The notes: generated by a model from the letters alone, not told the origin. A stretch of 58,683 bases of DNA from a virus (IMGVR_UViG_3300027754_002641:1-58683), one strand, 5' to 3'. Positions 4,215 through 29,876 are shown, numbered from the stretch's first letter. Program-made: numbers and translations.

Positions 4215-5351
4215 ATGAAATCCTGCACACGTTGCCTCAACACCGAGACGGCTGACACGATCTCATTCAACAAAGATGGGGCATGTAGCGTCTGTGTTCA
4301 GGTTGACCATAAGCTGACGGCGGTTGATTGGAACGAGCGCAAGATGGATTTGCACCGGCTCATCACCACGGCCCGTGCGCGCAATGGGCAGTACGATTGC
4401 ATTGTTCCGTTTAGCGGCGGCAAGGACTCGACGTATCAGCTTTGGTATGTGGTGACGCAGTTGCGATTGAGGCCGCTGGTTGTGCGATATAACCATTGGG
4501 GCAACCGTCCGCAGTTGGAGCGGAACAATGCGCGGGTGTTCAAACAATTGGGCGTTGAGGTGTTGGACTTCAAACCGAATTGGAAAGTTGTGCAGGCAAC
4601 GATGTTGGAGGCGCTGACGCGCAAGGGGGACTCCTGCTGGCATTGTCATACTGGGGTGTATTCGTTTCCGATGCACATGGCGATCAAGTTCGATACGCCG
4701 CTTATTTTTTGGGGAGAGAGCCTTAAGGAATACCAATCGTGGCTGGACCCAACTGCGCTGGAGAATGTTGACGAGGTGCGGTTTAACCGGGCGATGAATT
4801 TGGGGATGACTGCGGACGATATGTGGGAGTTTATCAAGGACTCGAACGCCAGCCTGGAACGGCGCGATTTGCATTGGCACGCGTACCCGCCGAAGGCTGA
4901 GTTGGATAAGTTGGGTGTGCAGTCGATTTGTTTAGGAGATTACATCCGGTGGGATACGCAGGGTCAGGTAGCGATCATTAAGGAGCACCTTGGGTGGGAG
5001 GGTGATGTTGTTGAGGGCATCCCGCCGGAGTTTGATTACGAGAAGATTGAGTGCCAGTTCCAGGGCGTTCGGGATTGGCTGAAGTACATCAAGCGCGGAT
5101 TTGGGCGGACGAATCATTTAGCGAACATTGAGATACGGCATGGCCGTATGACGCGGGACGCGGGTGAGAAACTGGCGCGTGAATACGATGGTAAGGAACC
5201 GGCCAGCTTGGGGTGGTTTTTGCAGACGGTTGGGATTACGCGGAATGATTTCTATGAGATTGCGTTGAGCCATGTGGTTGACCCGTGGGTGTTTGAAGGG
5301 TCTGCGTTTGAAACAGGGCCGGAGTTGCCGGATTTCAAACAATGGGTTTGA
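4215..5351 (+). CDS. N-acetyl sugar amidotransferase (WbuX/PseA/PtmG family)
   Basis: N-terminal CxxC...CxxC, YDCIVPFSGGKDS PP-loop, CWHCH, KRGFGR. Confidence 0.9.
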   Translation: MKSCTRCLNTETADTISFNKDGACSVCVQVDHKLTAVDWNERKMDLHRLITTARARNGQYDCIVPFSGGKDSTYQLWYVVTQLRLRPLVVRYNHWGNRPQLERNNARVFKQLGVEVLDFKPNWKVVQATMLEALTRKGDSCWHCHTGVYSFPMHMAIKFDTPLIFWGESLKEYQSWLDPTALENVDEVRFNRAMNLGMTADDMWEFIKDSNASLERRDLHWHAYPPKAELDKLGVQSICLGDYIRWDTQGQVAIIKEHLGWEGDVVEGIPPEFDYEKIECQFQGVRDWLKYIKRGFGRTNHLANIEIRHGRMTRDAGEKLAREYDGKEPASLGWFLQTVGITRNDFYEIALSHVVDPWVFEGSAFETGPELPDFKQWV

Positions 5352-5998
5352 AACGCCGGATCATTGCGAAGTTCCTGATCGAGGACGGCAAGCTTGTTAA
5401 GTACAAGCAGTTCACTCAAGCCCGCCGCACGGCTGGTAACGCCGTGTCTACGGCGCGTACATATGAAGACCTACGTGTCGATGAGATGTACTTCTGCGAC
5501 CTTGGGGTGATTGACCCGGCCATGATACGGGCGGTGACGGCAGATGTGTTCACCCCTGTTACGGTGGCCGGGTCGATCCACTCGATGCGGCAGGTAGACG
5601 AACTGATCCAAGACAGCGGCGCGGATAAGGTGGTCATTCTGCACCGCGCTCTGGCCGAGGCGGTTGCCCAAAAATATGGGCAGCAGGCTGTGGTGTGGCC
5701 TATTGACTATCACACGAAGTGTGTAGAAGATGTTCCAGATTGCGCGGGGGAAGTTCTGCTAACGGACATTGATCGCGACGGCATGGGCAAGGGATTCGAC
5801 TTGGACGTATTGAAGAAGCGGTGGGATGTGCCGGTTATCATTGCCGGTGGCTGCGGGAAGCTGGATCACGCTTTGCAGGCATTCAACGCTGGCGCGGACG
5901 CTGTTGCCATTAGCTCCATGTTTTTTTTCACTGACAAGAGTCCGATTAAGCTCAGAAGCTGGCTTGCCAGCGAGGGCGCGAATGTGAGGAACGTGTGA
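5342..5998 (+). CDS. hisF: HisF-like cyclase-family protein (WbuZ/HisF2 type)
   Basis: GLKRRII, GADKVVI, GEVLLTDIDRDGMGKGFD, PVIIAGGCG; adjacent to the amidotransferase. Confidence 0.85.
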   Translation: MGLKRRIIAKFLIEDGKLVKYKQFTQARRTAGNAVSTARTYEDLRVDEMYFCDLGVIDPAMIRAVTADVFTPVTVAGSIHSMRQVDELIQDSGADKVVILHRALAEAVAQKYGQQAVVWPIDYHTKCVEDVPDCAGEVLLTDIDRDGMGKGFDLDVLKKRWDVPVIIAGGCGKLDHALQAFNAGADAVAISSMFFFTDKSPIKLRSWLASEGANVRNV

Positions 5999-6279
5999 CC
6001 AACGAACCGACTGAGATGGAGTTGAGGGTGGCGCACGCGATATATGAACGAGCCACTGTAATGCCAAACGGTCAACTTCATTTGATGAAGAAGAAACCGT
6101 GGGAAAAACTTCAGAACATCAGCAGAGTAAAATATCTGAACGATGCCCGTGCCGCGATTCGGGCGATGCGGGAGCCGACAACGGAGATGAAAGATGCTGG
6201 TCATCCCGAAGATGGCCCACTTAAACCATATTTTGCGTGGACAGCTATGATCAACGCAGCCTCGCCGCAGGAGGAGTAG
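5995..6279 (+). CDS. Phage hypothetical protein (EPTEMELRV...AIRAMREPT family)
   Basis: GTG start overlapping upstream stop; paralog at 50105-50383. Confidence 0.65.
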   Translation: MTNEPTEMELRVAHAIYERATVMPNGQLHLMKKKPWEKLQNISRVKYLNDARAAIRAMREPTTEMKDAGHPEDGPLKPYFAWTAMINAASPQEE

Positions 6280-6801
6280 GTGATAGCCTCGCTCCCCATC
6301 CACAAATACGTCTGGGTTGATAGCAGCCATATCCGCACCAATGGCGTTGGCTTTGAGCCAGCCGTGTGGTTTGGCCTAGTCAGCCAGTATGGCCGCGCTT
6401 GGGGTCTGAACGTGATGTTGGAGTGCGGCGCAATTTACCGCAGCCTTCCTCCTCACGCGGTGGCGTTCCGCAAAGACCCAGAGCCGTGGACGATTCAAGA
6501 CGCACAGCTATGGGATTGTTACGCCGACAAATTTCAACTCCACGAATATGTCTACCTACGTGAGGCCCGTGTGAAGACCGGCAAACACAATGGCGTCTAC
6601 CTGTTCACCGCAGCCTTCATTGGAGATGCATTCACCCGCACACCTGAGCAGGGCAAGGAGTTTAGCTTCATCGAGTTGGAGAATGGCCGGTTAACGATCC
6701 AGCCGACGAACCGTACTTTGTTTGAAGACAGGTCATTCACGGTGGATACGGGTGTTCCGAAAGACTTGATGACGCAGACAAGAACATGGTCATGCGAATG
6801 A
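6280..6801 (+). CDS. Conserved phage hypothetical protein
   Basis: 173 aa, AGGAG RBS, abuts upstream stop. Confidence 0.7.
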   Translation: MIASLPIHKYVWVDSSHIRTNGVGFEPAVWFGLVSQYGRAWGLNVMLECGAIYRSLPPHAVAFRKDPEPWTIQDAQLWDCYADKFQLHEYVYLREARVKTGKHNGVYLFTAAFIGDAFTRTPEQGKEFSFIELENGRLTIQPTNRTLFEDRSFTVDTGVPKDLMTQTRTWSCE

Positions 6802-6938
6802 TCCCCGCCAAGTTCATCTGCCTGACAGATCACCCGCAGAACGTCCGATGGGGTGAGGGTTGCGGTAGAGAGTGGGTTGGGACTGGTGTGCGCGGTTGTC
6901 CGTTCTGCGGCGCGCTTTGGGTGAAGAGAATCAAATGA
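6798..6938 (+). CDS. 46-aa Zn-ribbon-like protein (not in ORF track)
   Basis: MIPAKFICLT...GCGREW...GCPFCGALWVKRIK; ATGA overlaps at both ends. Confidence 0.55.
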   Translation: MIPAKFICLTDHPQNVRWGEGCGREWVGTGVRGCPFCGALWVKRIK

Positions 6939-8023
6939 CTTTGTGGCCATATCATTCTGAAGACGAAATCAGCGCGGTAGCTGATGTGCTTCGTTCCGGT
7001 AAGACGAACTACTGGTCCGGCCCGAACGGGCAAGCGTTCGAGGCGGAGTTTGCTGCGTATACCGGGGCGAAGCACGGTCTTGCCGTTACCAACGGCACGA
7101 CGGCGCTGGAAGTTGCGCTTCATGGTTTGCGAATTGTGCCGGGGTCTGAGGTGATTGTTCCGTGCCGGACGTTCATGGCGACGGCGAGCGCGGTTATCAC
7201 CGAGGGCGCTCGGGTGATTCTGGCGGACATCGACCCGGCGACATTGAACGTGACGGTCGAGACGCTGGAGGAGCGGCGCACCACGAAGACGGCGGCCATC
7301 ATCGTTGTCCACTACGCCGGGCTTCCGTGTGACATGAAGGCGATTCGCGAGTGGGCGGACTTCCACAAGATCAGGATCATTGAGGACTGCGCCCACGCCC
7401 ACGGCTCGCGCATTGACGGGCAGCATGTCGGCACGTTTGGCGACATTGGGTGTTTCTCGTTCTGCGTTGGGAAGACCATGAGTACGGGCGGCGAGGGCGG
7501 CATGGTGATTACCAACAATGAGTGGGTACATCGTCGGATGGCTGCACGGCGCGATCACGGGCGGTATCAGATGGTCGGGTCCAAGGACATGACGCAATTC
7601 CAGTGGACGGTTGAGGAGTTTGGTACGAATTTGCGTATGACCGAGATGCAATCCGTCATTGGCCGGTTGCAGTTGAAGAAGCTGGACGGCTGGGTGAACC
7701 GGCGCAATCAGATCGCGACGGCGTATGACAATATTCTTGGCGGCATTCCGGTGCCGCATGGTCAGGTGCATGGCCGGTATATGTATATGTCGTTTGTGGA
7801 TGACCGCGATCGCAAGATGATTGCGTTGCAGGGCATGGGTGTGGCAGCGCGATTGGGCGGTTGCCCCAATATCGGCCATGAGGCCGTGTTCAAGAACGGT
7901 GCCGCGAAGTGCCCCCAGGCCGATGAGATTGGTTGTAGAACGTTGTCTCTGCCGGTGTACCCGACAATGACTGACCGCGATGTTGGGTTGGTCCTGAGCG
8001 CGCTGGAGAAGGTATGCGTTTAG
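6935..8023 (+). CDS. DegT/DnrJ/EryC1/StrS sugar aminotransferase (PglE/LegC role)
   Basis: NGTTAL, IIEDCAHAHG, FSFCVGKTMSTGGEGG PLP-lysine motif; start 6935 chosen by coupling. Confidence 0.92.
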   Translation: MTLWPYHSEDEISAVADVLRSGKTNYWSGPNGQAFEAEFAAYTGAKHGLAVTNGTTALEVALHGLRIVPGSEVIVPCRTFMATASAVITEGARVILADIDPATLNVTVETLEERRTTKTAAIIVVHYAGLPCDMKAIREWADFHKIRIIEDCAHAHGSRIDGQHVGTFGDIGCFSFCVGKTMSTGGEGGMVITNNEWVHRRMAARRDHGRYQMVGSKDMTQFQWTVEEFGTNLRMTEMQSVIGRLQLKKLDGWVNRRNQIATAYDNILGGIPVPHGQVHGRYMYMSFVDDRDRKMIALQGMGVAARLGGCPNIGHEAVFKNGAAKCPQADEIGCRTLSLPVYPTMTDRDVGLVLSALEKVCV

Positions 8024-8487
8024 ACGATCAATGCCTTCAACTCTACCGGCTCGCCCGCGCTGCATGGGCGAGGGGCGATGTTGAAGAGGCTTGTAGACTG
8101 TATGGCAGGCTCCGTGCCGAACACGGGTGCGAGCTTTTCTATGAGGTCAGTCTTCCGCCGGTACATTTGATGTTGGTGCATCCCATTGGGACTGTGCTGG
8201 GACGCGCTACGTACCACGACTATTTGTGCGTCTACCAGAACGTCGGCGTTGGGTCTGACATCGACGGCAACCGGCCTACGATCGGTAGGGGCGTTGTGCT
8301 GTACCCCGGCGCTAAGGTGCTGGGTAATACCATCATTGGGAACAACGTATTCATCACCGCCAACACGGTGGTGCAGAATGTTGTTGTGCCGGACAACAGC
8401 GTCGTGTTCCCAGATGTTAATTCATGCAATTGGAAGCCCACCAAGCGCGATGTTATCCGCGATATTTTCAAGGTGACGAATGAGTAA
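8014..8487 (+). CDS. Hexapeptide-repeat acetyltransferase (serine acetyltransferase-like)
   Basis: HPIGTVLG, YQNVGVG, PTIGRGVVLYPGAKVLGNTIIGNNVFI. Confidence 0.8.
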   Translation: MRLDDQCLQLYRLARAAWARGDVEEACRLYGRLRAEHGCELFYEVSLPPVHLMLVHPIGTVLGRATYHDYLCVYQNVGVGSDIDGNRPTIGRGVVLYPGAKVLGNTIIGNNVFITANTVVQNVVVPDNSVVFPDVNSCNWKPTKRDVIRDIFKVTNE

Positions 8488-8641
8488 GCACTTAAAAAAG
8501 ATGCGGATCAACATTACGATCACGCCGGATTTGCTAAAGCGGATTGATAAGGCTGTGACGCCGTATGAGCGCAGCCGGTTTATCAACGCGGCCTGCCAAG
8601 AAGCTCTCGATAAGATTGAAGCGGGTAAGGGGTCAAAATGA
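8480..8641 (+). CDS. Ribbon-helix-helix DNA-binding protein, 53 aa (not in ORF track)
   Basis: RINITITPDLLKRIDKAV...RSRFINAACQEAL; overlaps upstream gene end and is ATGA-coupled to neuA. Confidence 0.7.
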   Translation: MSKHLKKMRINITITPDLLKRIDKAVTPYERSRFINAACQEALDKIEAGKGSK

Positions 8642-9339
8642 GCGTTCTGTATCTCATCACAGCACGGGGCGGTTCCAAGGGCGTACCGGGGAAGAACCTG
8701 CGTAAGATCGGCGGGATGTCTCTGGTGGCGTGGAAGGCCAACGCGGCCAAGCAGGTTATCACGGGCAACGACCGGCTGGTTATCTCGACCGAGTGCCCCG
8801 AGATTCAGAAAGAGGCTCTTCGCAATAATGTTGAGGTGCCCTTCACTCGGCCAGCCGAGTTGGCGACCGACACGGCATCCAGCGCGGACGTTATCAAACA
8901 TGCGCTGCGTGCGCTGAACACTTACCACGACACTGTGGTTTTGCTGGAGCCGAGCGCGCCGTTTACGACGCCGGAACATTTTATAACGGCGCTGACGATG
9001 AAAGAGGCGAAGGACGCGCATTTGATTGTTGGGATGAAGCACACGGAGCCGCATACGACTTTTATCGGTGAGCAGCCCAATGATGATTTTGTAACGCCCA
9101 TCATTGTTAAGATGGACCGCGTTGGCCGCAATCTGCGCCGCCAGGATTTGCGTCAGGAGTGGACGATGAACGGCGCGTTGTACGTATTCGACACGGATAT
9201 GTTTATGGAAACCGGCAGCATTTACGGCGGAGCGCGCAATTACGGTTTGCTTATGGACCGCTGGAATAGTATTGAGATTGATACTCTGTACGACTTGGAA
9301 ATGGCTGAGTACGCCCACGGCAAGGGGTACGTGTTTTGA
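8638..9339 (+). CDS. neuA: CMP-nonulosonate synthetase (acylneuraminate cytidylyltransferase)
   Basis: ARGGSKGVPGKN, RPAELATD, NGALY, SIEIDT. Confidence 0.92.
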   Translation: MSVLYLITARGGSKGVPGKNLRKIGGMSLVAWKANAAKQVITGNDRLVISTECPEIQKEALRNNVEVPFTRPAELATDTASSADVIKHALRALNTYHDTVVLLEPSAPFTTPEHFITALTMKEAKDAHLIVGMKHTEPHTTFIGEQPNDDFVTPIIVKMDRVGRNLRRQDLRQEWTMNGALYVFDTDMFMETGSIYGGARNYGLLMDRWNSIEIDTLYDLEMAEYAHGKGYVF

Positions 9340-10028
9340 CGTTTATCATTGCGGAAGCTGGGATAAATCATTGCGGGTCTTTGGACCGCGCATTGAAGAT
9401 GGTCGAAGTCGCGGCGGACGCGGACGCTGACGCGGTTAAATTCCAGTCATTCACGGCGTCGAAGCTTGGGTATGACGCTGATGTCGTGAAGTGGCTCAGT
9501 GGCATGGAGTTGTCCAAGGACGACCACTACAAGCTTAAGGCCAAAGCAGAGCGTTGTGGGATTCAGTTTATGTCCACGCCGTTCAGCGAGGAGTGGGTGG
9601 ACTTCCTTGTTGAGATTGGCGTGAAGCGGCTGAAGATTTCATCCGGCAAGGCCAAGGAGCCAGCGTTCGTTGATTACGCCAGAAGGACCGGCCTGCCGTT
9701 AATCATCAGCACCGGCATGATTAATTACGCGCAGATGTTGGCTGTGACATGCCCAGAAGATTGGGTTCTCTATTGCGTGTCGAAATATCCGACGCCTCTC
9801 AACAAGGTTGATTTCAGGAACTTGTCCAGGCTTGAGAAGCTGTTCCCCATATGGGGGTTCTCGGATCATACGGTTGGGCACGGCGCTGCGGTTATTGCAG
9901 CCGCTTCCGGCGCGAAGGTGATCGAGAAGCACTTCACGATGGACCGGAAATTATTCGGGCCGGATCAAGTATGCAGCCTTGAGCCGGATGAACTGAAGCA
10001 GATGATTACGGAGATACGATCGGTATGA
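9336..10028 (+). CDS. neuB: Nonulosonate synthase, NeuB family (no C-terminal SAF domain)
   Basis: FIIAEAGINH, DAVKFQ, STPF, SDHT, IEKHFT; TTG start. Confidence 0.92.
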   Translation: MTFIIAEAGINHCGSLDRALKMVEVAADADADAVKFQSFTASKLGYDADVVKWLSGMELSKDDHYKLKAKAERCGIQFMSTPFSEEWVDFLVEIGVKRLKISSGKAKEPAFVDYARRTGLPLIISTGMINYAQMLAVTCPEDWVLYCVSKYPTPLNKVDFRNLSRLEKLFPIWGFSDHTVGHGAAVIAAASGAKVIEKHFTMDRKLFGPDQVCSLEPDELKQMITEIRSV

Positions 10029-10942
10029 TCCGCGACATTGACCTGAGAGATTTGCTGCCGCGCAGTCATGTCGTTCGCGATATGACGACGGTTGCTGAAA
10101 TGTTGAGGGGCAAGCGTGTTGTCGTGACCGGCGCGGGCGGGTCGATCGGGTCTGAGTTATCGCGACAGATCAGCCGGTTTTATCCGAAGGAATTGGTGCT
10201 GGTCGATAACTGCGAGTTCAATCTGTATTCGATCAGCGAGCAGATACCGTCCGCGACCGCGATTTATGCAGACATCAGGGATTCAAATTCCGTTTGCTTG
10301 TTCATTGGGAACAAAGCCGACCAGATTGTTTTCCATGCGGCTGCGATGAAGCATGTGCCGCTGGTAGAGGAAAACCAGGCAGAGGCCGTAAGGACTAACA
10401 TCTTAGGCACAACGAATGTTGCCGTGGCGTGTTTGAAGGTCAACACCCACCGGCTCGTTATGATTTCAACGGACAAGGCTGTTAAGCCGACTAGCTTTAT
10501 GGGCAAGACCAAGCGCGGGGCGGAGAACATTTGCCGGGAGGCTGGGTATACAGTTGTCCGGTTCGGCAATGTGCTCGGCTCTTCCGGCTCGGTTGTCCCG
10601 CTGTTTGAACGCCAGATTAAGAATGGTGGCCCGGTTACGGTGACGCATGAGGATGTTGAGCGGTACTTCATGTCGATTGATGAGGCTGTCAGTCTTGTGC
10701 TTCATGCGGCGACAGGTGAGCCGTCCACGTATGTTTTGGACATGGGCCAGCCGGTCAAGATCATGGACTTAGCGAAGGACATGATTCGCCTTGCGGGCAA
10801 GATGCCGGGGTCTGAGGTCGAGATAAAGATTGTGGGGATGCGCCCCGGTGAACGTCTTCAGGAGGAGTTGTTCTACGACTCAGAAGTTGTCGAGAAGTTC
10901 TCCGTGGACGGCATATGGAGGGTGAGAGATGACGCAGCGTAA
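10025..10942 (+). CDS. NDP-GlcNAc 4,6-dehydratase (PglF/CapD catalytic domain)
   Basis: TGAGGSIGSEL, FHAAAMKHVP, ISTDKAV, VRFGNVLGSSGSV, RPGE. Confidence 0.9.
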   Translation: MIRDIDLRDLLPRSHVVRDMTTVAEMLRGKRVVVTGAGGSIGSELSRQISRFYPKELVLVDNCEFNLYSISEQIPSATAIYADIRDSNSVCLFIGNKADQIVFHAAAMKHVPLVEENQAEAVRTNILGTTNVAVACLKVNTHRLVMISTDKAVKPTSFMGKTKRGAENICREAGYTVVRFGNVLGSSGSVVPLFERQIKNGGPVTVTHEDVERYFMSIDEAVSLVLHAATGEPSTYVLDMGQPVKIMDLAKDMIRLAGKMPGSEVEIKIVGMRPGERLQEELFYDSEVVEKFSVDGIWRVRDDAA

Positions 10943-11546
10943 TGTGCTGATTACGGGGAGCGCCGGACACCTTGGGCGTGCGCTGCGGGCTGCGTTTGAG
11001 GCGCAGGGGGATGTTGTGACGGGTGTTGATACGCACAATGCGGAATTTTTATGTGACCTAGAAAGCATGACTCCTGTCGGAAATATTTACAAACATTTTC
11101 CAACTGACAAGTTCGACATTGTTGTTTGCAATGCCAAACTTAAAAGCTGGATTTCTCATAACCGGCTTGCGGGCTTTGCCACATCCTCCATCATCAACAT
11201 CGCCTCCATCTACGGCGCTCTCGGCCCCGATCCCATGATGTACTACGGCACGGAGATCGAGCAGACGCCCGCATGGTACGCCGCTAGTAAGGGCGCGATG
11301 ATTGCGCTGACAAAACACCAGGCCACAACGCTGGCTCCTGTGCGGAGCAATGCCATCATCCTTGGCGGCATCTTCCGCGACCACAGCGACGTTTTCCGCG
11401 AGCGGTATGAGGCTAAGGTGCCACTGTGTCGCATGGCGACTGAGCAGGACGCGGTAGACCTGTGCCTGTTCCTGGCGAGCGATAAGGCGAGCTACATCAC
11501 TGGCGCGTGTATCCCGTGCGACGGCGGACTGAGTGCAATGGCATGA
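10929..11546 (+). CDS. Short-chain dehydrogenase/reductase (PtmA/ElaC-like)
   Basis: TGSAGHLG, NIASIYG, YAASK, SYITG...DGG. Confidence 0.85.
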   Translation: MTQRNVLITGSAGHLGRALRAAFEAQGDVVTGVDTHNAEFLCDLESMTPVGNIYKHFPTDKFDIVVCNAKLKSWISHNRLAGFATSSIINIASIYGALGPDPMMYYGTEIEQTPAWYAASKGAMIALTKHQATTLAPVRSNAIILGGIFRDHSDVFRERYEAKVPLCRMATEQDAVDLCLFLASDKASYITGACIPCDGGLSAMA

Positions 11547-11836
11547 CGATGAACGAATCGGAAATTTTGGATAAGATTGACGACACAAAATCCAGAAAGA
11601 GAGTTGCCGAGCGCGAGCTTAGTGTTTTTGACGAATCCATTATTACCGCCAACATTTATTCTGATCGTCTGACTGTCGCGAAGTTGAGAAGCGGGTGGAA
11701 AAGAGTCAAAGCTGCAAAAAAGCTAAGAGAGCCGTTTCAAAAAAATGTTGAGCAAATCAGCGTTGATCTTTTTTGTCTAAGGGCTGAGTTGAACCGGGTC
11801 ACTAACCTGAAGAAATATTTAAGATCGCGGAAATGA
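11543..11836 (+). CDS. Hypothetical basic/coiled-coil protein
   Basis: ATGA overlaps at both ends; lower GC. Confidence 0.6.
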   Translation: MTMNESEILDKIDDTKSRKRVAERELSVFDESIITANIYSDRLTVAKLRSGWKRVKAAKKLREPFQKNVEQISVDLFCLRAELNRVTNLKKYLRSRK

Positions 11837-13553: not shown

Positions 13554-13642
13554 ACCCAGCGATAGCACCCCGCTGGGGCGACCGAGAGAACGGTGCCCCC
13601 CACCGTCCCGCCCTCTTGGTCGCACACTTTTAGGAAAGCAAC

Positions 13643-15662: not shown

Positions 15663-15697
15663 CTTAGCCCGTCTTTTTGTATTTTAGGCAAGTCTGT

Positions 15698-18112: not shown

Positions 18113-19098
18113 TGGACTCTATGCGGCGCAATGCCCAGAAAATGATGCCCCACGTTATGGCTTTGAATAAGAAGCCGGACACGGGGTTGAAGAACAACAA
18201 CCAACCGGCACGCGGCATGAGCAATGTCACGGCGTTTGCGAAGGGTGGGAAGGTTTCCATGAAGAAGTGGGAAAACTCCGCCACGGACAAGGCGCAGGAC
18301 AAGAAGCTAGCTGCGAAGCACGGCATGACGTTTAAGAAATGGGAAAAGTCCATTTTGGACGTTCAGCACGACAAGCAGCAGTCCCCCAAGGGCCTGAAGA
18401 GCGGTGGTAAGCCGAAGAAGTATGCGAACGGCGAGGGCGTTTATACCCCCGGCAAGTTTTATACCCCCGGCAAGTTCAGCGAGAGCGCGTCTAACTCCCT
18501 TGTCGGTAGGGACACGACCCAAAAGAACCGTCTGGCCGATCCTAGAGCTATTAGAGTTACCGCCAAGAAAATGGACAATCTTGATGAGGGCCTGAGTTCA
18601 GCGCCAGCAAGCGAACCCACGGAAGACGAAGATTCGATCAAGGTAACTGCCCGACAGGAAATCCCGGTCGTTGCGAAGAAATCTACCGCGAAGATTCGCA
18701 AGAAGGTCGATTACGACAAGATGAGTTCCGACGATGCGGTCGCCAGGTGGAACAAGAAGCATAACAAAGATTATGTTGGAGACAGTTATACGCCTAGCGG
18801 TTTTGCCAAAGGTGGTAAGACAAAGAAGGCCGGAAGCAAGAAGGTGATGGGCACGGTAGACGAGGCAAAGAACCTCGTAGCCGCTCTCGGCAATGCGCGG
18901 AGCCAGATGGCTGCGCCCGCCGGTATGGGTATGCCGCCGCGTATGGCACCGCGTATGGCCCCTGGTATGGGCATGTCGCCCCCGATGAAGAAGGGCGGCA
19001 AGGTCATGAAGAAGGCCGCTGGCGGCGCTGCTAAGATGCGCCGGTCGTCCCCGACGCCGGATAAGATTAAGAAAGTCCCATACGTGAATGGAGGTTGA
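18112..19098 (+). CDS. Lys-rich virion-associated protein with repeated xxxGG motifs
   Basis: FAKGG x2, LKSGG, MKKGG, AAGG; internal 18-bp duplication encoding YTPGKF x2. Confidence 0.7.
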   Translation: MDSMRRNAQKMMPHVMALNKKPDTGLKNNNQPARGMSNVTAFAKGGKVSMKKWENSATDKAQDKKLAAKHGMTFKKWEKSILDVQHDKQQSPKGLKSGGKPKKYANGEGVYTPGKFYTPGKFSESASNSLVGRDTTQKNRLADPRAIRVTAKKMDNLDEGLSSAPASEPTEDEDSIKVTARQEIPVVAKKSTAKIRKKVDYDKMSSDDAVARWNKKHNKDYVGDSYTPSGFAKGGKTKKAGSKKVMGTVDEAKNLVAALGNARSQMAAPAGMGMPPRMAPRMAPGMGMSPPMKKGGKVMKKAAGGAAKMRRSSPTPDKIKKVPYVNGG

Positions 19099-19099
19099 T

Positions 19100-19165
19100 A
19101 TGTCGCGACCTGTAAAAGATATCCGTCTGAAGCCGAAAGGCACTAAGAAGGGCAAGGGAAAATAG
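19100..19165 (+). CDS. 21-aa basic peptide (not in ORF track)
   Basis: MSRPVKDIRLKPKGTKKGKGK with GGAGG RBS; fills the intergenic gap. Confidence 0.5.
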   Translation: MSRPVKDIRLKPKGTKKGKGK

Positions 19166-19167
19166 CA

Positions 19168-19461
19168 ATGAGTGCTGACCTGCTGGCAAGGAAGGTCACG
19201 GCAAGGTTGCGAGAGGCGAGAGAGGAAAAGATCAACTCTCTCAGGCGATGCAAACCCCGCGCCCCAATGATTGTTGAGGGCGCGGCGATCGCCGCAGCTA
19301 CGGCTGAAGAAATAGCGTTCTTCGCAATCGACACCAACGCGACGATAGATGCGTTCAATATCGCTATGTCGATCATTGAGGAAGAGTACAAAAAAATCAC
19401 CAGTCCAGAACAACCGGACGATGATAAACCCCCACAGGCAAGGACAGTTAACTATGGCTAG
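19168..19461 (+). CDS. Hypothetical protein
   Basis: 97 aa ORF in head operon. Confidence 0.65.
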   Translation: MSADLLARKVTARLREAREEKINSLRRCKPRAPMIVEGAAIAAATAEEIAFFAIDTNATIDAFNIAMSIIEEEYKKITSPEQPDDDKPPQARTVNYG

Positions 19462-19942
19462 TCTCAAAACCTTACCATTCGTGCAAGAAAGCGAAGTCTC
19501 CGAAGCGGAGACTTTGATTAACAAGATGTTTCTGGACATGCCCGGCGGCAAGCCGTTTGAACTCCGCCCGGCTGGCTACATGATCGCGACGAAGATTTAC
19601 GTTCGTCCCGATGAGTTAATGGTTATTGATATGCCGGACGGGTCGAAGAAAACACTTTGGACGCCGGAAGTAAGCAAGACGCACGACAAGTTTGATTCTG
19701 TTTCTGCGTTGGTTTGTGCGGTCGGCCCGCAGGCTTACAAGGGGTTTAACCAAGATGGCACCAGCCGGTATCCCGAGGGGCCTTGGTGCCGTGTCGGGGA
19801 CTGGATTGTGATCCCGCGCCAATCTGCGTTTGTCTGCCACTATCATGGAGTGGCGATGGCGATTCTGCCGGACGATAAGGTTATCGCGGTTATCCAAGAC
19901 CCAACAGATGTTTCGACTGTCTACATGGCACCGAAAGTTTGA
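19454..19942 (+). CDS. groES: GroES/Cpn10-like co-chaperonin
   Basis: VCAVGPQAY, PWCRVGDWIV, AILPDDKVIAVI pattern of phage GroES-like proteins. Confidence 0.75.
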   Translation: MASLKTLPFVQESEVSEAETLINKMFLDMPGGKPFELRPAGYMIATKIYVRPDELMVIDMPDGSKKTLWTPEVSKTHDKFDSVSALVCAVGPQAYKGFNQDGTSRYPEGPWCRVGDWIVIPRQSAFVCHYHGVAMAILPDDKVIAVIQDPTDVSTVYMAPKV

Positions 19943-19954
19943 TAGGCAAGAATC

Positions 19955-21073
19955 ATGTATAAACTTCCAACACCCACATACGCGCAAGAAGGTACAGGTG
20001 CTGCTGCGCCTGAACCGGCACAGGTTCCGAAAAATCTAACGGGGCAAGAGGAGTTTCCTGAAGAGGAAATTGATCTGCCTAATGAAGACGGCTCAGAGCC
20101 GGAGGCACAAGAGACACCGGCAGAGCCGGACCCCGCTAAAACGTTTAAGCGTAGAGGGCCGAAGCGTTATGCGACTTTGACCCATGAGCGTGATGAGGCG
20201 CGTGGGTACGCCGCACAACTCCAGGCCGAATTGGAAATTGAGCGTAGCCGCGCGGCTGAGTTGGAGGCCAAGGCTAACGAGGCGTCCAGCATTGCGATGC
20301 AAAGTTACGCGGCCAAGTCAGAGTCCGATCTGCGCGAGGCCCGCGCCGCGCTTTCTGCGGCCATTGAAAGCGGTGATCCAGGCAAGATCACCGAAGCCTC
20401 CGAACAGTTGTCGTCAGCCAAGGCTACGATGGATGACGTTGAGGTTTGGAAGAAGTCAGAGCAAGCCAAGCAAAACGCACACGCACCCCCACGGCAGGCC
20501 GCGCCACAGCCCCAGGCGGCGCAAATCCCAGAACTTCCAGATGAAGTTAAGGGCTGGGTTATGGAGAATCGCTACTTCGATTTTGTCCAGCGAGACAGCG
20601 GCGGGAATGTCGTTTTCGACCGTAGCGGCAAGCCGATGCGTAATCCAGATTACGACGACACTATGCACACCGAGGCAACGCTATTCGCTACAAACCTTGA
20701 GCGAAAGATTTCTGATGGTCGCCTTAATTATAAGGTTTCTTCACCGGAGTATTTTAAGGCCGTTGAAGAGCATATGCGTGACCAGTTTCCTGACTACTTT
20801 GACGAAGAAGAACAAGAGCAACCCGCAGCCCCTGTCCGCAGGGGGTCACCAGTTGCTGCTCCGACTCGATCAATGTCTTCGGGTGGTCAGGCGGTACAGA
20901 ACCCATCCAAGTTCAAGCTAACCAGCGATCAGCTACGGTTTGTTAAACGAATGGTCGATAACGGCGGTGGACCGAAGTATCCGCAGGGTCATGCTCGGCA
21001 ATTCCAGCCGATGAGCTACGATGACGCTAAGGTCAGTTACGCTCGCCGTATTATGAAAACAAACAACCAGTAG
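19955..21073 (+). CDS. Probable capsid scaffolding protein
   Basis: Acidic N-terminus, long coiled coil, position before capsid genes. Confidence 0.65.
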   Translation: MYKLPTPTYAQEGTGAAAPEPAQVPKNLTGQEEFPEEEIDLPNEDGSEPEAQETPAEPDPAKTFKRRGPKRYATLTHERDEARGYAAQLQAELEIERSRAAELEAKANEASSIAMQSYAAKSESDLREARAALSAAIESGDPGKITEASEQLSSAKATMDDVEVWKKSEQAKQNAHAPPRQAAPQPQAAQIPELPDEVKGWVMENRYFDFVQRDSGGNVVFDRSGKPMRNPDYDDTMHTEATLFATNLERKISDGRLNYKVSSPEYFKAVEEHMRDQFPDYFDEEEQEQPAAPVRRGSPVAAPTRSMSSGGQAVQNPSKFKLTSDQLRFVKRMVDNGGGPKYPQGHARQFQPMSYDDAKVSYARRIMKTNNQ

Positions 21074-21084
21074 GATGATTCATC

Positions 21085-21582
21085 ATGGGTCGTAAACCTC
21101 GTAGTTCTGAAGCCCGCGACAGCAACACGCGCGCTGCGGAGTCTCGTCAAGAAGCCAAGACAACTCACCAATCTCGCTTTTACATTCCGCCGAATGTTAT
21201 TCCGCGTGGCGTGACTTATGCGTGGGTCGCCGTGGCATTTGATAACGCCGGTACGTTTAATAAGGATAATTGGAACAATAAGTTCCGCGCTGGCTGGCGT
21301 CCGGTGCCGCGCGATCGCCATCCTGAATTGTTTCCGCCTGTGCCGAATATCGGTTTCGGTTCTGACGACGACCGTTATATTAATGAGGGCGGACTTATTC
21401 TTTGTGAAAAGCCAACGGTAGATGTCCGGCGCGATCGCGATGCGCTGGAACGTCTGGCACGGCAACAGATGGAAGGGCAGAAATGGACGCAGGCACAGGG
21501 GGCCAATCCGTTTGCACAGACCATGCCGCGCTTTGATGAGTCTAAGACTGAGTTTGGGCACTCTGCCCAGTTTAAGGAATAA
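21085..21582 (+). CDS. Conserved head-region hypothetical protein
   Basis: YAWV, GWRPVP...HPE, GGLILCEKP. Confidence 0.7.
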   Translation: MGRKPRSSEARDSNTRAAESRQEAKTTHQSRFYIPPNVIPRGVTYAWVAVAFDNAGTFNKDNWNNKFRAGWRPVPRDRHPELFPPVPNIGFGSDDDRYINEGGLILCEKPTVDVRRDRDALERLARQQMEGQKWTQAQGANPFAQTMPRFDESKTEFGHSAQFKE

Positions 21583-21586
21583 ATAC

Positions 21587-21622
21587 GGGGTGGCTGGGGT
21601 TAAGGAACCCTGGCCCACCTTT
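21587..21622 (+). terminator. Long GC hairpin, possible terminator
   Basis: GGTGG-CTGGGGTT-AAGG-AACCCTGG-CCCACC followed by TTT. Confidence 0.45.
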
Positions 21623-21722
21623 CCCTTGCCGGAGGAGTGACGGGGCCAATCCTGGCCACCCCACCATGATAAGGGGGCTTACAACGCCTCTGAATTGTGG
21701 TAATTTAAGTATTAATTGCGAT

Positions 21723-21823
21723 CCTGCAACGCAGGTTATCGACGCCAATCACGTATTTGGCCGGGTTATTAGACCCGTTATCGAAGTGCAGTCACGTATC
21801 TGCTCCGTGCCGTCGCAACGGCA
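21723..21823 (+). ncRNA. Candidate cis-regulatory structured RNA (tandem hairpin units)
   Basis: Two copies of hairpin-TTATCGA-stem[TCACGTAT loop] with different but pairing stems. Confidence 0.5.
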
Positions 21824-21870
21824 ATCAGTGATTTTCGCACCGTTTAGGGTGCATCTGACAGGAGCAAAAC

Positions 21871-22467
21871 ATGGCTTACGGCGCGAGCGGAGGCTTTGGC
21901 CTTCAACCGCTTAATAGCGGTAACGGTGTTACCTTCAATGGCATCACCAATCAATACAATCTTCCGGCGACGGGTGGACAGAGCATTTTCCAGGGCGACC
22001 CTGTGGCTCTTTCGACCGTTGGCGTGATCGTCCGAGGCACCGCGTCCATTCCGGCGCTTGGTGTCTTCCAGGGCTGCAAGTTTCAGGACACCGCCGGTGT
22101 CTGGCAGTTCACCAACTACTTCGCTGGCGCGACGGCTTTCCTTGCTGGCAACACGCCGGTCGCACTCGTCATCGACGATCCGATGGCCCAGTACACCATC
22201 ACAGAGGGTGATGCGACTGGCGCTTCCGGTACTCCGCTTACGTCTGCCGCCCCCGGCCTGAACGCCAACTTCGTTTACACGGCGGGCAGCACGCGTACCG
22301 GCCTTTCTGCCGTCACGCTGAACAACGCTACGGCGAGCACGGCTTCCAGCCAGAATCTGCGAATTACTGCTCTTGATCCCCGTGTCGGAAATGCGGTTGG
22401 CGCGTTCGCCAACTGGGTTGTCCAAATCAACAACGGCCAGCGTTCCGCTGGCACGCCGCGTCCTTAG
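21871..22467 (+). CDS. Capsid decoration/minor capsid protein
   Basis: FGLQP, IFQGDPV, GVFQGC, VIDDP; strong AGGAG RBS; precedes the MCP gene. Confidence 0.7.
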   Translation: MAYGASGGFGLQPLNSGNGVTFNGITNQYNLPATGGQSIFQGDPVALSTVGVIVRGTASIPALGVFQGCKFQDTAGVWQFTNYFAGATAFLAGNTPVALVIDDPMAQYTITEGDATGASGTPLTSAAPGLNANFVYTAGSTRTGLSAVTLNNATASTASSQNLRITALDPRVGNAVGAFANWVVQINNGQRSAGTPRP

Positions 22468-22491
22468 TAGCATAGGACCAGGAGCAGAAAC

Positions 22492-23397
22492 ATGACCATT
22501 AATACCAGTCAAATCCAGCAGCTTCTCCGCCCCGGCTTGGCAGAAGTGTTCGGTGATTATCCGATGTACCCGGCTGAATATACCGAAATCTTCAGCACCC
22601 ATACTTCGGACAAAGCAGTCGAAATCGAAGTCGAAATGAAGCTGCTCGGGCTTGCGGCCACTAAGGCCGAAGGCGCTCCGACGCAGTTCCAAGACATGGG
22701 ACAGCGCGTAATCAGCACCTACTACCATCGCTACACCAGCGTTGGCTTTATGATTACTCGCCAGGCGATGAAGGATAACCTTTACGAGTCGCAGTTCCCG
22801 CAGCAGGCGCAGTCTCTCCGTAACTCGATGCTGCAAAGCAAAGAAGTTAACGGCGCGTCTGTTATCAACAACGGCTACTCGGCATCGTTCCCCGGCGGCG
22901 ATGGTGTGGCGCTCTTCTCGACCGCTCACCCGATCGACACCGGCACGTTCGCGAATACGCCGTCCGTTCAGGTGGACCTGAATGAATCGTCTCTGCAAGA
23001 TGCGATCGTAACCATCTCGCAGTTCCGCGATCAGGCTGGCCTCATCACGATGACCAAGCCGACCAAGTTGATCGTTCCGCCGCAGCTTCAGTTCACGGCG
23101 GATCGTATCCTGCACTCGCAGTTCCGCACTGGTACTGCGAACAACGACATTAACGCCGTGTACAATATCGGCGCTGTGCCGCAGGGCTATCGGGTCAATC
23201 ACTTCCTGACCGATACCAACGCCTGGACCTTGATGACCGACGCCCCGAATGGTCTGAAGCACTATGTCCGTGAAGCTCTCGAAACGGATGTTTTCACTGA
23301 CTTCACCAGCGATAACCTGCTCGCGAAGGCCATCGAACGGTACTCGTTCGGCTGGTCTAACTCGCGTGGCGCTTATGGTAGCTCTGGCGCTACCTAA
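22492..23397 (+). CDS. Major capsid protein
   Basis: LLRPGL, GDGVALFSTAHP, LIVPP, NDIN, NHFLTD, ERYSFGW; strong RBS; terminator follows. Confidence 0.88.
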   Translation: MTINTSQIQQLLRPGLAEVFGDYPMYPAEYTEIFSTHTSDKAVEIEVEMKLLGLAATKAEGAPTQFQDMGQRVISTYYHRYTSVGFMITRQAMKDNLYESQFPQQAQSLRNSMLQSKEVNGASVINNGYSASFPGGDGVALFSTAHPIDTGTFANTPSVQVDLNESSLQDAIVTISQFRDQAGLITMTKPTKLIVPPQLQFTADRILHSQFRTGTANNDINAVYNIGAVPQGYRVNHFLTDTNAWTLMTDAPNGLKHYVREALETDVFTDFTSDNLLAKAIERYSFGWSNSRGAYGSSGAT

Positions 23398-23426
23398 TAA
23401 GGTGCTAGAGGGCTGAATAGAAAATT

Positions 23427-23462
23427 GGCCATCGTGCCGCAAAGGGTGCGGTGGCCTTTTTC
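23427..23462 (+). terminator. Rho-independent terminator
   Basis: GGCCATCGTGCC-GCAAAG-GGTGCGGTGGCC-TTTTT. Confidence 0.8.
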
Positions 23463-23484
23463 ACAACGAAAGTGAGGCATCCTC

Positions 23485-24240
23485 ATGACTTCTTTTTTCG
23501 ATAACGTTAAGATTGGTCGGGCGGCTTATAACCGCAATCTTACGCCTCCGACAGGCTATGCCGAGGACGAGATTTACGGCATCCCGCTGACGCAGACTTA
23601 CGTTTACCAAGCTGGCACGGCATCCACCTCCCTGGCGAGCGGCGTGTTTTATGCGTCTTCCGCTGTGGCGGGAACGCTGACCGGCACGGGCGTGTTGGTA
23701 AGTGGTGGCGTTGCCACCTTTGACGTTCCCCGTAGCGTGCAGATCACGGCTTCCAGCAACATGGCAACGGTCACGTTTACCATCCGTGGTACGGATGCGT
23801 ATGGTGCGCCGCTTACGTGGGCTGGTGTCGGCCCGACCGGCAATACCCTTGGCGCTGCCGGTTCTTATGTCGTCAGCCTCTCCGCGTTCAAAACCATGAC
23901 TACGGCGTCATGCGATGGCGCGGCGACCGGGGCGCTGACCATTGGTACTTCGGATACTTTCGGAATGCCGTTCCGTATTCCCAATGTCGGTTATGGCATG
24001 GGGGTTCACATCAACGGCGAGAGTGCTACCGTCCCGGCTACGTGGACGGCTGGCTTGGCTGCCACGGGCGTTGCGACGGCCACCACAGCCGATGTCAGGG
24101 GCACTGTGGCCCTGGCTACAACTGTTCTAAGCAACGGCTCTCGTTATTTTAGCTTTGAGTTCATTACTCCAAATACCGGCATTGCGGCTGGCGCTGATAC
24201 GAAGGAAAATAGCTACGGCGTTACGCCGTTTACGTCGTAA
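23485..24240 (+). CDS. Thr/Ala/Gly-rich virion structural protein
   Basis: DVPRSVQIT...GTDAYG, ADVRGT; shares a domain with 25162-25818. Confidence 0.7.
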   Translation: MTSFFDNVKIGRAAYNRNLTPPTGYAEDEIYGIPLTQTYVYQAGTASTSLASGVFYASSAVAGTLTGTGVLVSGGVATFDVPRSVQITASSNMATVTFTIRGTDAYGAPLTWAGVGPTGNTLGAAGSYVVSLSAFKTMTTASCDGAATGALTIGTSDTFGMPFRIPNVGYGMGVHINGESATVPATWTAGLAATGVATATTADVRGTVALATTVLSNGSRYFSFEFITPNTGIAAGADTKENSYGVTPFTS

Positions 24241-24246
24241 TATAAA

Positions 24247-24284
24247 GCCAGGGCACACACCGCCGTGCCCTGGCCTTTCCTTTC
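24247..24284 (+). terminator. Probable terminator
   Basis: GCCAGGGCAC-N8-GTGCCCTGGC-CTTTCCTTT. Confidence 0.6.
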
Positions 24285-24311
24285 TGGCGGCTACTAGGCA
24301 AGGATATAATT

Positions 24312-25202
24312 ATGGAACAATCCGCTCAGTCGATGCCCACGCCTATTTCGCTCATGCCTAATCGTAAGGCCGTGAACATTATCGCTATGGGTTCGAGCCG
24401 AAATGACTTCTTCCAGGCGCAGCTTATGGAAAGCCGCCCCGATATTCTTCAGAACGCCGAGATTTGGTGCATCAACTACATGGGCGGGCAGATTCGCTGC
24501 GACCGCATTATTCACGTTGATCCCGTCCACGCGTTTCTTGGGCACCCGATTGTGCGCGATATGTGTGAATACGCGTTGAAGGACAACATCCCGTTCTACA
24601 CCTCGCACCCGCACCCGAAGTACAATAACCATGTGGTGTATCCGTTCGCCCGTGTTTCGGCTGCTTTCGGCGGCATCACATATTTCAACACCAGTGTGTC
24701 GTATGCGATCGCGCTGGCGCTGGCTGACGGTTTCACAGAAATCGGCCTGTTTGGCTGCGACTTCTCGTACCCAGATGTCCATATGGCTGAATCTGGCCGC
24801 GCTTGTTGCGAGTTTTATATCGGCATCGGCACTCAGCGCGGCGTTCGGTTTGCCGTCGCTCAAGGCTCGACGCTGATGGATATGTACAACGGCCAACAGC
24901 CCTACGGCTGGTTCTCCAACCCGAATCTGCCGCCCGCCAATGGCGGTAAGCTGATGAACGCCCGTGAAATCTTGGCGCATGAAGAACGTGTGAAAAATCC
25001 GCCGAAGTTTTCTGACCTCATCCAAACCGTTAAAATGTCCACGCCTATTCAGCAGGTCAGTCCGATTGCGGTCGGCTCTGGCGGCGAAAACGCTATTTAC
25101 ACGAATTTGCTGGGCGGGCCGCTCCCACTGAAAAATGGCCAAGACTCTTTAGGAGTACAATATGCGCCCCACGGTAATCTCGTTCCCGGCCCCATCAGTT
25201 AA
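24312..25202 (+). CDS. Putative nonulosonate transferase (CstII/GT42-Maf-like fold)
   Basis: VNIIAMGSS, IWCIN, TSVSYAIALALADGFTEIGLFGCDFSY parallel the CstII motifs VIIAGNGPS, VFRCN, TSGVYMCAVAIALGYKEIYLSGIDFY. Confidence 0.65.
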   Translation: MEQSAQSMPTPISLMPNRKAVNIIAMGSSRNDFFQAQLMESRPDILQNAEIWCINYMGGQIRCDRIIHVDPVHAFLGHPIVRDMCEYALKDNIPFYTSHPHPKYNNHVVYPFARVSAAFGGITYFNTSVSYAIALALADGFTEIGLFGCDFSYPDVHMAESGRACCEFYIGIGTQRGVRFAVAQGSTLMDMYNGQQPYGWFSNPNLPPANGGKLMNAREILAHEERVKNPPKFSDLIQTVKMSTPIQQVSPIAVGSGGENAIYTNLLGGPLPLKNGQDSLGVQYAPHGNLVPGPIS

Positions 25203-25818
25203 CGCGGTCTGCGCGACACAGACCACGACTGCTGCGAACCAGGCGCTTACGCTCAACGGGAGCCTGTCTAATATTGCACTGAGTAACGGCCAGGGGTATT
25301 CGCCCCTGGTTGTTTTCCCAGGCATCCAACGTGCGATCAGTGTAACGAGCACTGGCAATATCAGTACGTCTACTATTTCGATTACTGGGTATGACACCAG
25401 AAGCGTGCTCTTCACGACCACGCTTACTGGTCCCAACAACACGACCGTCAACACCACGACAGAGTTTAACAAGATCACAGCGGTCAGCGTTGGCACGCTT
25501 GCCAGCAGCACGTTTACTGTTGGTACGAGCGCCACCGGGTCTAGCACATGGGTTCAGGGTGATTCGTTTATCAGCCCGTTTGCTGTGACTGTTACGGTAG
25601 AAACCGTGACTTCTGCCCCGATCACAATTCAAGATACGCCGAATGATGTTCAGGCTGCTGCTCCGTCGATTATCTTTAATCACTCGACCTTGGCAACGGT
25701 GACTGTTTCGGCTGAGTCCAACTACGCCTTCCCGGCGCGTTTCATGCGGTTTATCTGCACCGCTAGTGCGACTGCTACGGGGAACTCGCAAGTGACCTTT
25801 ATCCAGGCTGGGTGGTAG
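25162..25818 (+). CDS. Ser/Thr-rich virion structural protein
   Basis: About 30% Ser+Thr by manual count; paralogous segment to 23485-24240. Confidence 0.7.
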   Translation: MRPTVISFPAPSVNAVCATQTTTAANQALTLNGSLSNIALSNGQGYSPLVVFPGIQRAISVTSTGNISTSTISITGYDTRSVLFTTTLTGPNNTTVNTTTEFNKITAVSVGTLASSTFTVGTSATGSSTWVQGDSFISPFAVTVTVETVTSAPITIQDTPNDVQAAAPSIIFNHSTLATVTVSAESNYAFPARFMRFICTASATATGNSQVTFIQAGW

Positions 25819-25820
25819 TC

Positions 25821-25982: not shown

Positions 25983-26003
25983 AGGCATGGGACGAATCAC
26001 GTA

Positions 26004-26942: not shown

Positions 26943-26948
26943 ATAGAA

Positions 26949-29875: not shown

Positions 29876-29876
29876 C

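Follow-up and report, generated by a model that had tools for sequence, protein, structure and literature searches.

Can a tailed phage make a sialic-acid-like sugar for itself and attach it to its own particle? The question is raised by the viral sequence IMGVR_UViG_3300027754_002641, whose full 58,683 bp (a whole IMG/VR virus record, hereafter the window) carry a cassette of nonulosonate (nine-carbon sugar) genes and, in the head module, a gene that we call mini-Maf, encoding a putative cytidine monophosphate (CMP)-nonulosonate:protein transferase. Nonulosonates are found on bacterial flagella, capsules and lipopolysaccharide (LPS), with roles in charge, protease resistance and immune mimicry. 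Maf enzymes attach them in the cytoplasm, by O-glycosylation, to surface serines and threonines of flagellin and accept several CMP-ulosonates, according to two reports (PMC11339370; PMC4065374). We judge it slightly to the favourable side of even that this phage makes a legionaminic-type sugar and attaches it to its own virion proteins through an accessory two-part system.

The first part is a block of co-directional genes on the + strand (4215-13399), abutting or overlapping one another, with the terminase genes beginning 244 nt 3' of it (Table 1). A sequence-only reading of the region had announced enzymes for a CMP-activated nine-carbon sugar upstream of terminase and portal, and the full set is there: dehydratase, aminotransferase, N-acetyltransferase, NeuC- and NeuB-type enzymes and CMP-synthetase, all six classes above the Pfam gathering scores. 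The pathway from uridine diphosphate N-acetylglucosamine (UDP-GlcNAc) to CMP-legionaminic acid is of the Legionella/Acinetobacter type, and the block contains the same enzyme classes as this route (PglF/E/D-like steps, NeuC, NeuB, NeuA) combined with WbuX/Y/Z, but differs from it in a NeuB without the SAF domain, in the lack of a recognised HisH-like subunit and in an extra short-chain dehydrogenase/reductase (SDR) and an extra acyltransferase. Its gene content fits an acetamidino-capable CMP-5,7-diamino-nonulosonate route of UDP-GlcNAc origin and legionaminic type, in line with the sugar first proposed. We place it on the legionaminic rather than the pseudaminic side because it encodes a NeuC-type epimerase and left-handed beta-helix acetyltransferases, because no PseG-type (Glyco_tran_28_C) protein or PseH-type GNAT was found among the 40 window open reading frames (ORFs) scanned, and because the NeuB model outscores that of PseI; the stereochemistry, that of legionaminic acid or of an epimer, is not readable from sequence.

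Close relatives of the window phage measure 60-62 kb and include one that has direct terminal repeats; in two (G001 and G002) the cassette is syntenic at 49-91% protein identity. NeuC is 49-50% identical in these two, against 88% for WbuX, and the hexapeptide acyltransferase (8014-8487) is the only cassette acyltransferase conserved in the relatives. The NeuD/PglD gene (11833-12387), for which tblastn gave no match in G001 or G002, and the 109-aa ORF before it are missing from these otherwise syntenic cassettes, which makes the cassette mosaic. A search of the PDB with the 173-aa cassette ORF (6280-6801) gave no relative.

The second part is mini-Maf (24312-25202), which lies 3' of the major capsid gene (22492-23397), so that the earlier claim of a CstII/Maf-fold transferase among the capsid genes holds. 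Its product has 296 aa, about 235 of them structured, with a core that begins at about residue 17. The AlphaFold model built from the family alignment (predicted local distance difference test, pLDDT, 83) has a confident alpha/beta core, while residues 255-296 are modelled as disordered (pLDDT < 50), and this tail varies among relatives. In the core, D150, Y153, E160 and R163 are invariant. The best 14 Foldseek matches listed for the model were all bacterial sialyltransferases, namely CstII (best E 5e-5), Cst-I and one Pasteurella enzyme. With the GT42 enzymes CstII and Cst-I of Campylobacter jejuni the predicted model shares the fold of the CMP-sugar-binding domain, but CstII acts on lipooligosaccharide glycans, unlike the protein-directed role proposed here, and has no sequence match to mini-Maf; the GT42 family PF06002 does not match the window protein, and one relative reaches E 0.0054, below threshold.

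Homology points to the Maf family. Conserved motifs of mini-Maf, scanned against 185,579 species genomes, yielded 53 loci: four were closer (33-42% identity) and lay on contigs of metagenome-assembled genomes, of which the two scanned both carried phage capsid/adaptor genes, and the other 49 were weak matches, every one in spirochaetes. The spirochaete relatives, proteins of 550-570 aa from Treponema and other spirochaetes, where Maf paralogues are encoded in tandem pairs, pass the Pfam MptE-like model PF01973 (107 bits), and two of them match PF20157 (Maf_flag10_N), one (L340) above the cut-off (score 30.6 bits). Aligned by hhalign with 16 of these proteins, the mini-Maf family gave 96.5% probability (E 7.6e-10, 130 columns), in an alignment that ends in the near-identical motif FG(C/A)DFSYP. 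Given this profile homology, mini-Maf would be a Maf core that has neither the N-terminal nor the C-terminal domain: it has in common with the Maf flagellin glycosyltransferases (PF01973 core; structure 5mu5) the central MptE-like/Maf core, but unlike them it is phage-encoded in a head module, and its acceptor is presumably a virion protein rather than flagellin.

The family is large and almost purely viral. We counted 116 homologues in a collection of 5.8 billion proteins, none with a Pfam domain; a profile made from 40 homologues matches 3,888 clusters at 50% identity, and the nearest clusters in the ESM Atlas are 94-100% viral. Among 50,697 deposited phage records, tblastn returned one partial match to mini-Maf, a Microcystis phage gene with a methyltransferase annotation, and three records matched NeuB. 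It is possible, though we rate it clearly below even, that mini-Maf is the first example of a very large viral clade of single-domain Maf cores that serves as general virion O-glycosylation machinery of tailed phages, with CMP-ulosonate donors made by phage or host; members of the clade would adjoin the Ser/Thr-rich capsid- or fibre-associated proteins that they modify. As a separate observation, the C-terminus of mini-Maf (25050-25202) is a Pro-rich disordered tail ending in NG[HQ]D..GV..AP....P, a motif that visual inspection and a loose pattern search found in about 12 of 40 aligned relatives, and it may be a docking peptide.

Which proteins might mini-Maf modify? The local order is capsid gene, hairpin, 23485 gene, hairpin, mini-Maf and 25162 gene, the last starting 41 nt before the mini-Maf 3' end, and the proteins encoded at 23485 and 25162 are paralogous by jackhmmer. 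The earlier mention of many Ser/Thr-rich structural proteins was accurate: these two and four further ORFs of the structural region (27362-27943, 24.9%; 27940-28284, 22.8%; 28284-28673, 27.9%; 28604-29875, 21.3%) reach 21.3-31.2% serine plus threonine, against a mean of 13.7% over the 40 ORFs scored and 10.1% in mini-Maf itself. Strong GC-rich hairpins after the capsid gene and after the 23485 gene, in a segment (18000-30000) with 34 terminator-like sites against 13.4 expected from shuffles, suggest large-scale production of the 23485 protein and a smaller output of the enzyme; the 23485 protein is probably abundant and head-associated. A tblastn search with it among the deposited phage records gave one partial match. 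In an ESM Atlas structure search, it matched, after viral clusters, bacterial FliD (template modelling score, TM, 0.59 by query) and flagellin (TM 0.48); on these models the candidate acceptor may look like the beta domains on the outside of flagellar proteins, the natural substrates of Maf, and we treat this as a lead only.

A similar arrangement recurs in other lineages. In five of seven more distant loci scanned (all HK97-type), the major capsid gene is followed by a gene for a Ser/Thr-rich protein of about 140 aa (phrog_5707) and then by mini-Maf; the four HK97-type loci with long enough flanks have a portal gene and then a prohead protease gene just 5' of the capsid gene, and a head-tail connector was recognised downstream in one. 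In G007, a complete relative, a methyltransferase-mini-Maf fusion lies among tail-fibre-like genes. Across 18 clusters the protein encoded 5' of mini-Maf has a median Ser/Thr fraction of 0.227, against 0.124 for the remaining ORFs of these loci (p 5e-4), and the 3' neighbour, at 0.168, is not significantly enriched (p 0.18), in a test that used crude gene calling and structural modules that are Ser/Thr-rich anyway.

The two parts are also linked statistically. At least 562 IMG/VR contigs encode a relative of NeuB; from 80 returned loci we chose 50 (contigs of at least about 22 kb) and searched 49 by profile, which revealed a mini-Maf family member in 17. Without the four records of the phage's own lineage the count is 14 of 45, in 11 groups by transferase similarity, and among NeuB records at least 90% complete it is 6/10 (5/9 without the own-lineage G002). 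Neither the mini-Maf family nor NeuB occurred in any of 41 control viral contigs of at least 20 kb drawn by an arbitrary 14-mer (0/41 each), so that mini-Maf is enriched with NeuB (Fisher p = 4.5e-5 overall, 8.8e-4 among complete records). In four NeuB-bearing records a mini-Maf relative lies within about 3 kb of NeuB, and one adjoins a HisF-like gene. We conclude that the mini-Maf family and NeuB are statistically associated among viral contigs.

From these genes and models we infer what the enzymes do, exactly which sugar is made, what accepts it and what the phage gains. A late-operon cassette would start from host UDP-GlcNAc and, by 4,6-dehydration, 4-amination, N-acetylation, hydrolysing 2-epimerisation and condensation with phosphoenolpyruvate, form a 5,7-diamino-nonulosonate of legionaminic type, which would then probably be amidinated by WbuX/WbuZ, perhaps be otherwise tailored by the SDR and the second acyltransferase, and be activated with CTP. 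Mini-Maf, as a cytoplasmic Maf catalytic core without N- and C-terminal domains, would move the CMP-sugar onto serines and threonines of the phage's structural proteins, either ahead of assembly or in its course; the likeliest acceptors are the flanking paralogous beta proteins 23485 and 25162, perhaps joined by other Ser/Thr-rich virion proteins, and the likely benefit is a particle with a charged glycan shield. Relatives without the cassette would draw on host CMP-ulosonates, a plausible notion given that both CMP-Neu5Ac and CMP-Kdo serve Maf enzymes as donors (PMC11339370).

A number of observations weigh against this proposal, several of them concerning the enzymes. Among the pathway enzymes, WbuX alone passes its NCBIfam equivalog cut-off, all others falling below theirs, and Pfam/NCBIfam scans showed no glutamine amidotransferase domain of the kind expected of a HisH-type glutaminase. 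NeuB (9336-10028) has 230 aa, ends at position 232 of the 241 of the PF03102 profile and lacks the C-terminal SAF domain, and a six-frame search of the window revealed no detached SAF-like segment. Its clade consists of SAF-less homologues (230-246 aa, 47-96% identical) on phage-sized contigs, and the nearest SAF-bearing proteins are about 44% identical to it; automatic JGI names given to NeuB homologues read N,N'-diacetyllegionaminate synthase. The short sequences hint that a SAF-less synthase can function, or functions with an unknown partner. Mini-Maf has no match in Pfam (E <= 0.01), NCBIfam or PHROGs, single-sequence phmmer and profile searches of the PDB gave nothing useful, and its relatives score only below the PF01973 threshold (24.2, 20.5, 23.3 and 19.4 bits; cut-off 34.6). 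It has neither Maf_flag10_N (no PF20157 match) nor Maf's C-terminal helical/tetratricopeptide-repeat (TPR) domain, and the missing domains count because they confer acceptor recognition, the C-terminal one being described, in passages of two sources, as FliS- or flagellin-like or as an acceptor-selecting TPR (PMC11339370; bioRxiv 2023.12.03.569772). No gene for a four-helix bundle (GlfM-like) was recognised near mini-Maf, although no search was aimed at one. The acceptor side shares in this: Ser/Thr richness alone is weak evidence because it is common among beta-rich phage structural proteins, and it is similar in G004, a relative without sugar genes; the all-beta model of 23485 has no fold match in the PDB.

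The same side of the balance holds the distribution of the parts. Of 20 long contigs with the mini-Maf family (the longest of 80 loci returned), NeuB occurs in five, all from the subgroup of at least 75% identity, and in two of the five complete genomes, whereas G004 and 14 other contigs, including three of the five complete ones, lack it. No sugar-pathway genes were found in the complete relatives G004 (38 ORFs scanned), whose mini-Maf is 63% identical and which has its structural module in common with the window phage, and G007 (23 ORFs scanned). Because NeuB is confined to the closer subgroup and these two genomes are without sugar genes, the pathway is an accessory of one subclade, and the system is not always 'self-contained', as had been supposed; the outcome of the co-occurrence check first proposed is mixed, with both parts present in the closer relatives. 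The beta-protein family is likewise wider than mini-Maf, which is present in 26 of 72 loci with room downstream, beginning -387 to +213 nt from the end of the beta-protein match, and absent within 5 kb from the other 46; among relatives below 60% identity it is present in 12 of 58. Three of 12 examined beta-protein loci without mini-Maf have a Phage_capsid_4 or Mu-gpT capsid gene directly 5' or one gene further, a fourth has a sub-threshold SU10 capsid match at that place, and for seven of the remaining eight Pfam gives no match to the protein of about 350 aa encoded upstream. The picture is that of a core head-module protein whose gene has, in some lineages, been joined by one for a modifying enzyme. 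The parts are therefore accessory and can occur apart, and the size of the NeuB effect is uncertain, though its direction is clear, because the NeuB and control sets may differ in habitat and phage type. The idea that the phage coats its virion with its own sugar thus retains the pathway genes, the Maf/GT42 fold, the link to NeuB and the position in the virion module, and has against it the relatives that keep mini-Maf without the sugar genes.

If the sugar is made, it could be destined for the host. In this alternative, which we regard as unlikely, the nonulosonate decorates the LPS, capsule, pili or flagellin of the host, where it might, for instance, bar superinfecting phages or keep progeny from adhering to debris, and mini-Maf acts on a host protein or is unconnected. 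Prophage enzymes that alter Acinetobacter capsule nonulosonates are described in two publications (PMC12053666, PMC6586298), and the known Maf acceptor, flagellin, is a host protein (PMC11339370). Against a host target, we detected no integrase, repressor, Wzx/Wzy or lipid-linked transferase among the 70 window ORFs scanned, the cassette continues into the terminase genes, a position that implies expression late in infection, the sole transferase candidate is a head-module gene both in this phage and in other lineages, and mini-Maf lacks the flagellin/FliS-like C-terminal domain of Maf.

Alternatively, mini-Maf could act on virion proteins with a host donor (CMP-Kdo or a host nonulosonate), the cassette being an independent metabolic set; we consider this quite unlikely. 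In its favour are the complete relatives that have mini-Maf and no sugar genes, and the use of CMP-Kdo and CMP-Neu5Ac by Maf enzymes (PMC11339370). An independent cassette is hard to square with the strong enrichment of mini-Maf in NeuB-bearing viral contigs (14/45 against 0/41) and with the mini-Maf relatives that adjoin NeuB or a HisF-like gene, and no other transferase candidates were found among the window ORFs scanned.

A further possibility, improbable in our view, is that the 24312 protein is not a glycosyltransferase at all, but an MptE/TPK-like pyrophosphokinase, another nucleotide-dependent enzyme or a head assembly factor. MptE HPPK, SteA and TPK obtain fold scores equal to those of Maf and CstII, and 15 of 25 mini-Maf-family representatives, which were picked for length, carry an N- or C-terminal S-adenosylmethionine (SAM)-methyltransferase domain, a fusion that suits other chemistries too; a passage of PMC11339370 reports a weak resemblance of the crystallised Maf N-terminal domain to methyltransferases. 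The profile homology to Maf proteins that have the Maf N-terminal domain, the fusion of one relative to a GT2 domain, the association with NeuB and the first rank of sialyltransferases in Foldseek argue instead for a transferase.

A small gene on the - strand (49818-50108) encodes a dATP/dGTP diphosphohydrolase N-terminal domain (PF18909, E 1.7e-19), which hints at nucleotide-pool manipulation or DNA base modification. Attachment of the nonulosonate to phage DNA bases, for which this gene and the known phage glycosyltransferases that decorate DNA (bioRxiv 2023.12.21.572611; PMC13326640) could speak, is very improbable, as those two sources make no mention of any nonulosonic, pseudaminic, legionaminic or sialic sugar, among the window ORFs scanned we saw neither a thymidylate-synthase-like gene nor one for a hydroxymethylase, and the transferase gene lies in the head rather than the replication module.

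The rest of the window identifies a tailed phage by its predicted genes, with terminase, SU10-like portal and adaptors, a Mu-gpT/Phage_capsid_4-type capsid protein, lysozyme, Prim-Pol/helicase and RusA. The record lacks end repeats (CheckV estimate 81%), has no tRNAs, and contains promoter-like sites in numbers not above those of shuffles. A 2,271-aa ORF without Pfam match at the end of the structural module (38922-45737) may encode a giant internal or ejection protein; a 21-nt repeat occurs in four copies (36134-36238) within the 35573-37360 gene, and a tandem 9/12-nt repeat (58573-58683) runs up to the last base of the record within a - strand ORF.

Table 1. Positions of the sugar cassette, the packaging and head genes and mini-Maf in the window, followed by relatives of mini-Maf on other contigs.
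Feature	Position	Strand	Evidence and remarks
WbuX-type N-acetyl-sugar amidotransferase (acetamidino formation, predicted)	4215-5351	+	TIGR03573 326.4 bits (cut-off 203.2); 88% identical in G001/G002
HisF/WbuZ-like, cyclase-type partner of amidotransferase	5342-5998	+	PF00977 E 6e-27; TIGR03572 WbuZ 144.6 bits (cut-off 299.7)
Small ORF, 94 aa	5995-6279	+	no Pfam/NCBIfam match
Small ORF, 173 aa	6280-6801	+	phrog_3704 'ferredoxin' E 1.5e-19; 84% identical in G001; no Pfam/NCBIfam match
Pyridoxal phosphate-dependent sugar 4-aminotransferase (DegT/PglE/PseC/LegC class)	6872-8023	+	PF01041 E 1e-94; PseC 239 bits, LegC family 179 bits, both below cut-off
Left-handed beta-helix (hexapeptide) acyltransferase	8014-8487	+	PF00132 E 5.5e-8; 65% identical in G001/G002
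CMP-nonulosonate synthetase (NeuA/LegF/PseF class)	8638-9339	+	PF02348 E 1.2e-13; TIGR03584 (PseF) 106.9 bits, below cut-off
Nonulosonate synthase NeuB, short SAF-less form	9336-10028	+	PF03102 E 9.6e-59; NeuB_NnaB 234 bits against PseI 176
UDP-GlcNAc 4,6-dehydratase (PglF/PseB class; Polysacc_synt_2)	10025-10942	+	PF02719 E 9.3e-97
SDR	10929-11546	+	PF13561 E 4e-18; best NCBIfam NF006619, 77 bits, below cut-off
109-aa ORF	from 11507, precedes NeuD/PglD gene	+	no tblastn match in G001/G002
NeuD/PglD-family N-acetyltransferase	11833-12387	+	TIGR03570 129.6 bits (cut-off 160.8); PF00132 E 2e-18
NeuC-type hydrolysing UDP-sugar 2-epimerase	12338-13399	+	PF02350 E 4e-42; TIGR03568 206.9 bits (cut-off 235.9) against WecB 35 bits
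Candidate small terminase	13643-14131	+	directly 3' of sugar cassette
Large terminase (TerL)	14100-15662	+	phrog_38 E 1.7e-100
Portal	15677-18112	+	phrog_1216 E 2.6e-33
Major capsid protein	22492-23397	+	PF25209 E 2e-8, PF10124 E 3e-8, phrog_371
Hairpin with T-run, 3' of capsid gene	23427-23456	+	12-bp stem, 8 GC pairs
Ser/Thr-rich all-beta protein, paralogue A, candidate acceptor	23485-24240	+	Ser+Thr 24.7%; model pLDDT 83
Hairpin with T-rich tail, between 23485 and mini-Maf genes	24247-24274	+	10-bp stem, 8 GC pairs
Mini-Maf, single-domain Maf/GT42-fold putative CMP-nonulosonate:protein transferase with disordered C-terminal tail	24312-25202	+	CstII/Maf fold
Ser/Thr-rich beta protein, paralogue B, candidate acceptor	25162-25818	+	Ser+Thr 31.2%; jackhmmer link to 23485 family
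Spirochaete tandem Maf loci	L340:3872-7014, L326:3846-7011, L360:3666-6897		nearest cellular relatives of mini-Maf family
SAM-methyltransferase fusions of mini-Maf relatives	L040:2539-3888, L033:9407-10771, L174:1459-3075, P0252 and others

To our knowledge, virion glycosylation by phage genes is established only in some mycobacteriophages, where it blunts antibody recognition; it was reportedly described by Freeman and colleagues in Cell Host Microbe in 2023 and is said to use other transferase families and host nucleotide-sugars. The spike of Halorubrum pleomorphic virus 1 reportedly bears an N-linked glycan ending in a legionaminic acid derivative, and is thus like the window proposal in having a legionaminic-type sugar on a virion, but this is an enveloped archaeal virus and the sugar is said to be made by host machinery. 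In mycobacteriophages, phage-encoded transferases glycosylate capsid and tail-tube subunits and shield the particle, as we propose for the window phage, but the part of the source consulted mentions neither a nonulosonate nor a phage-encoded sugar pathway (PMC12619734). Our full-text literature searches, with paywalled papers and supplements outside their scope, gave no report of a tailed phage that itself synthesises a nonulosonate and attaches it.

The window system is a plausible candidate for a novel form of glycosylation by Maf-type enzymes. If the proposal is true, a phage that synthesises a nonulosonate and also fixes it in place would represent a new kind of particle surface chemistry, relevant to phage adsorption, grazing and decay in water and to the immune clearance of therapeutic phages, and pairing the minimal core of Maf with an acceptor of beta-sandwich type could yield a compact O-sialylation tool for glyco-engineering. 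The clade of SAF-less NeuB proteins challenges the usual architecture of the synthase, and the mini-Maf family gives thousands of unannotated viral proteins a function to test. Should the reading of the family as a general glycosylation machinery be true, it would be common for phage particles in nature to bear sialic-acid-like coats, which have gone unrecognised.

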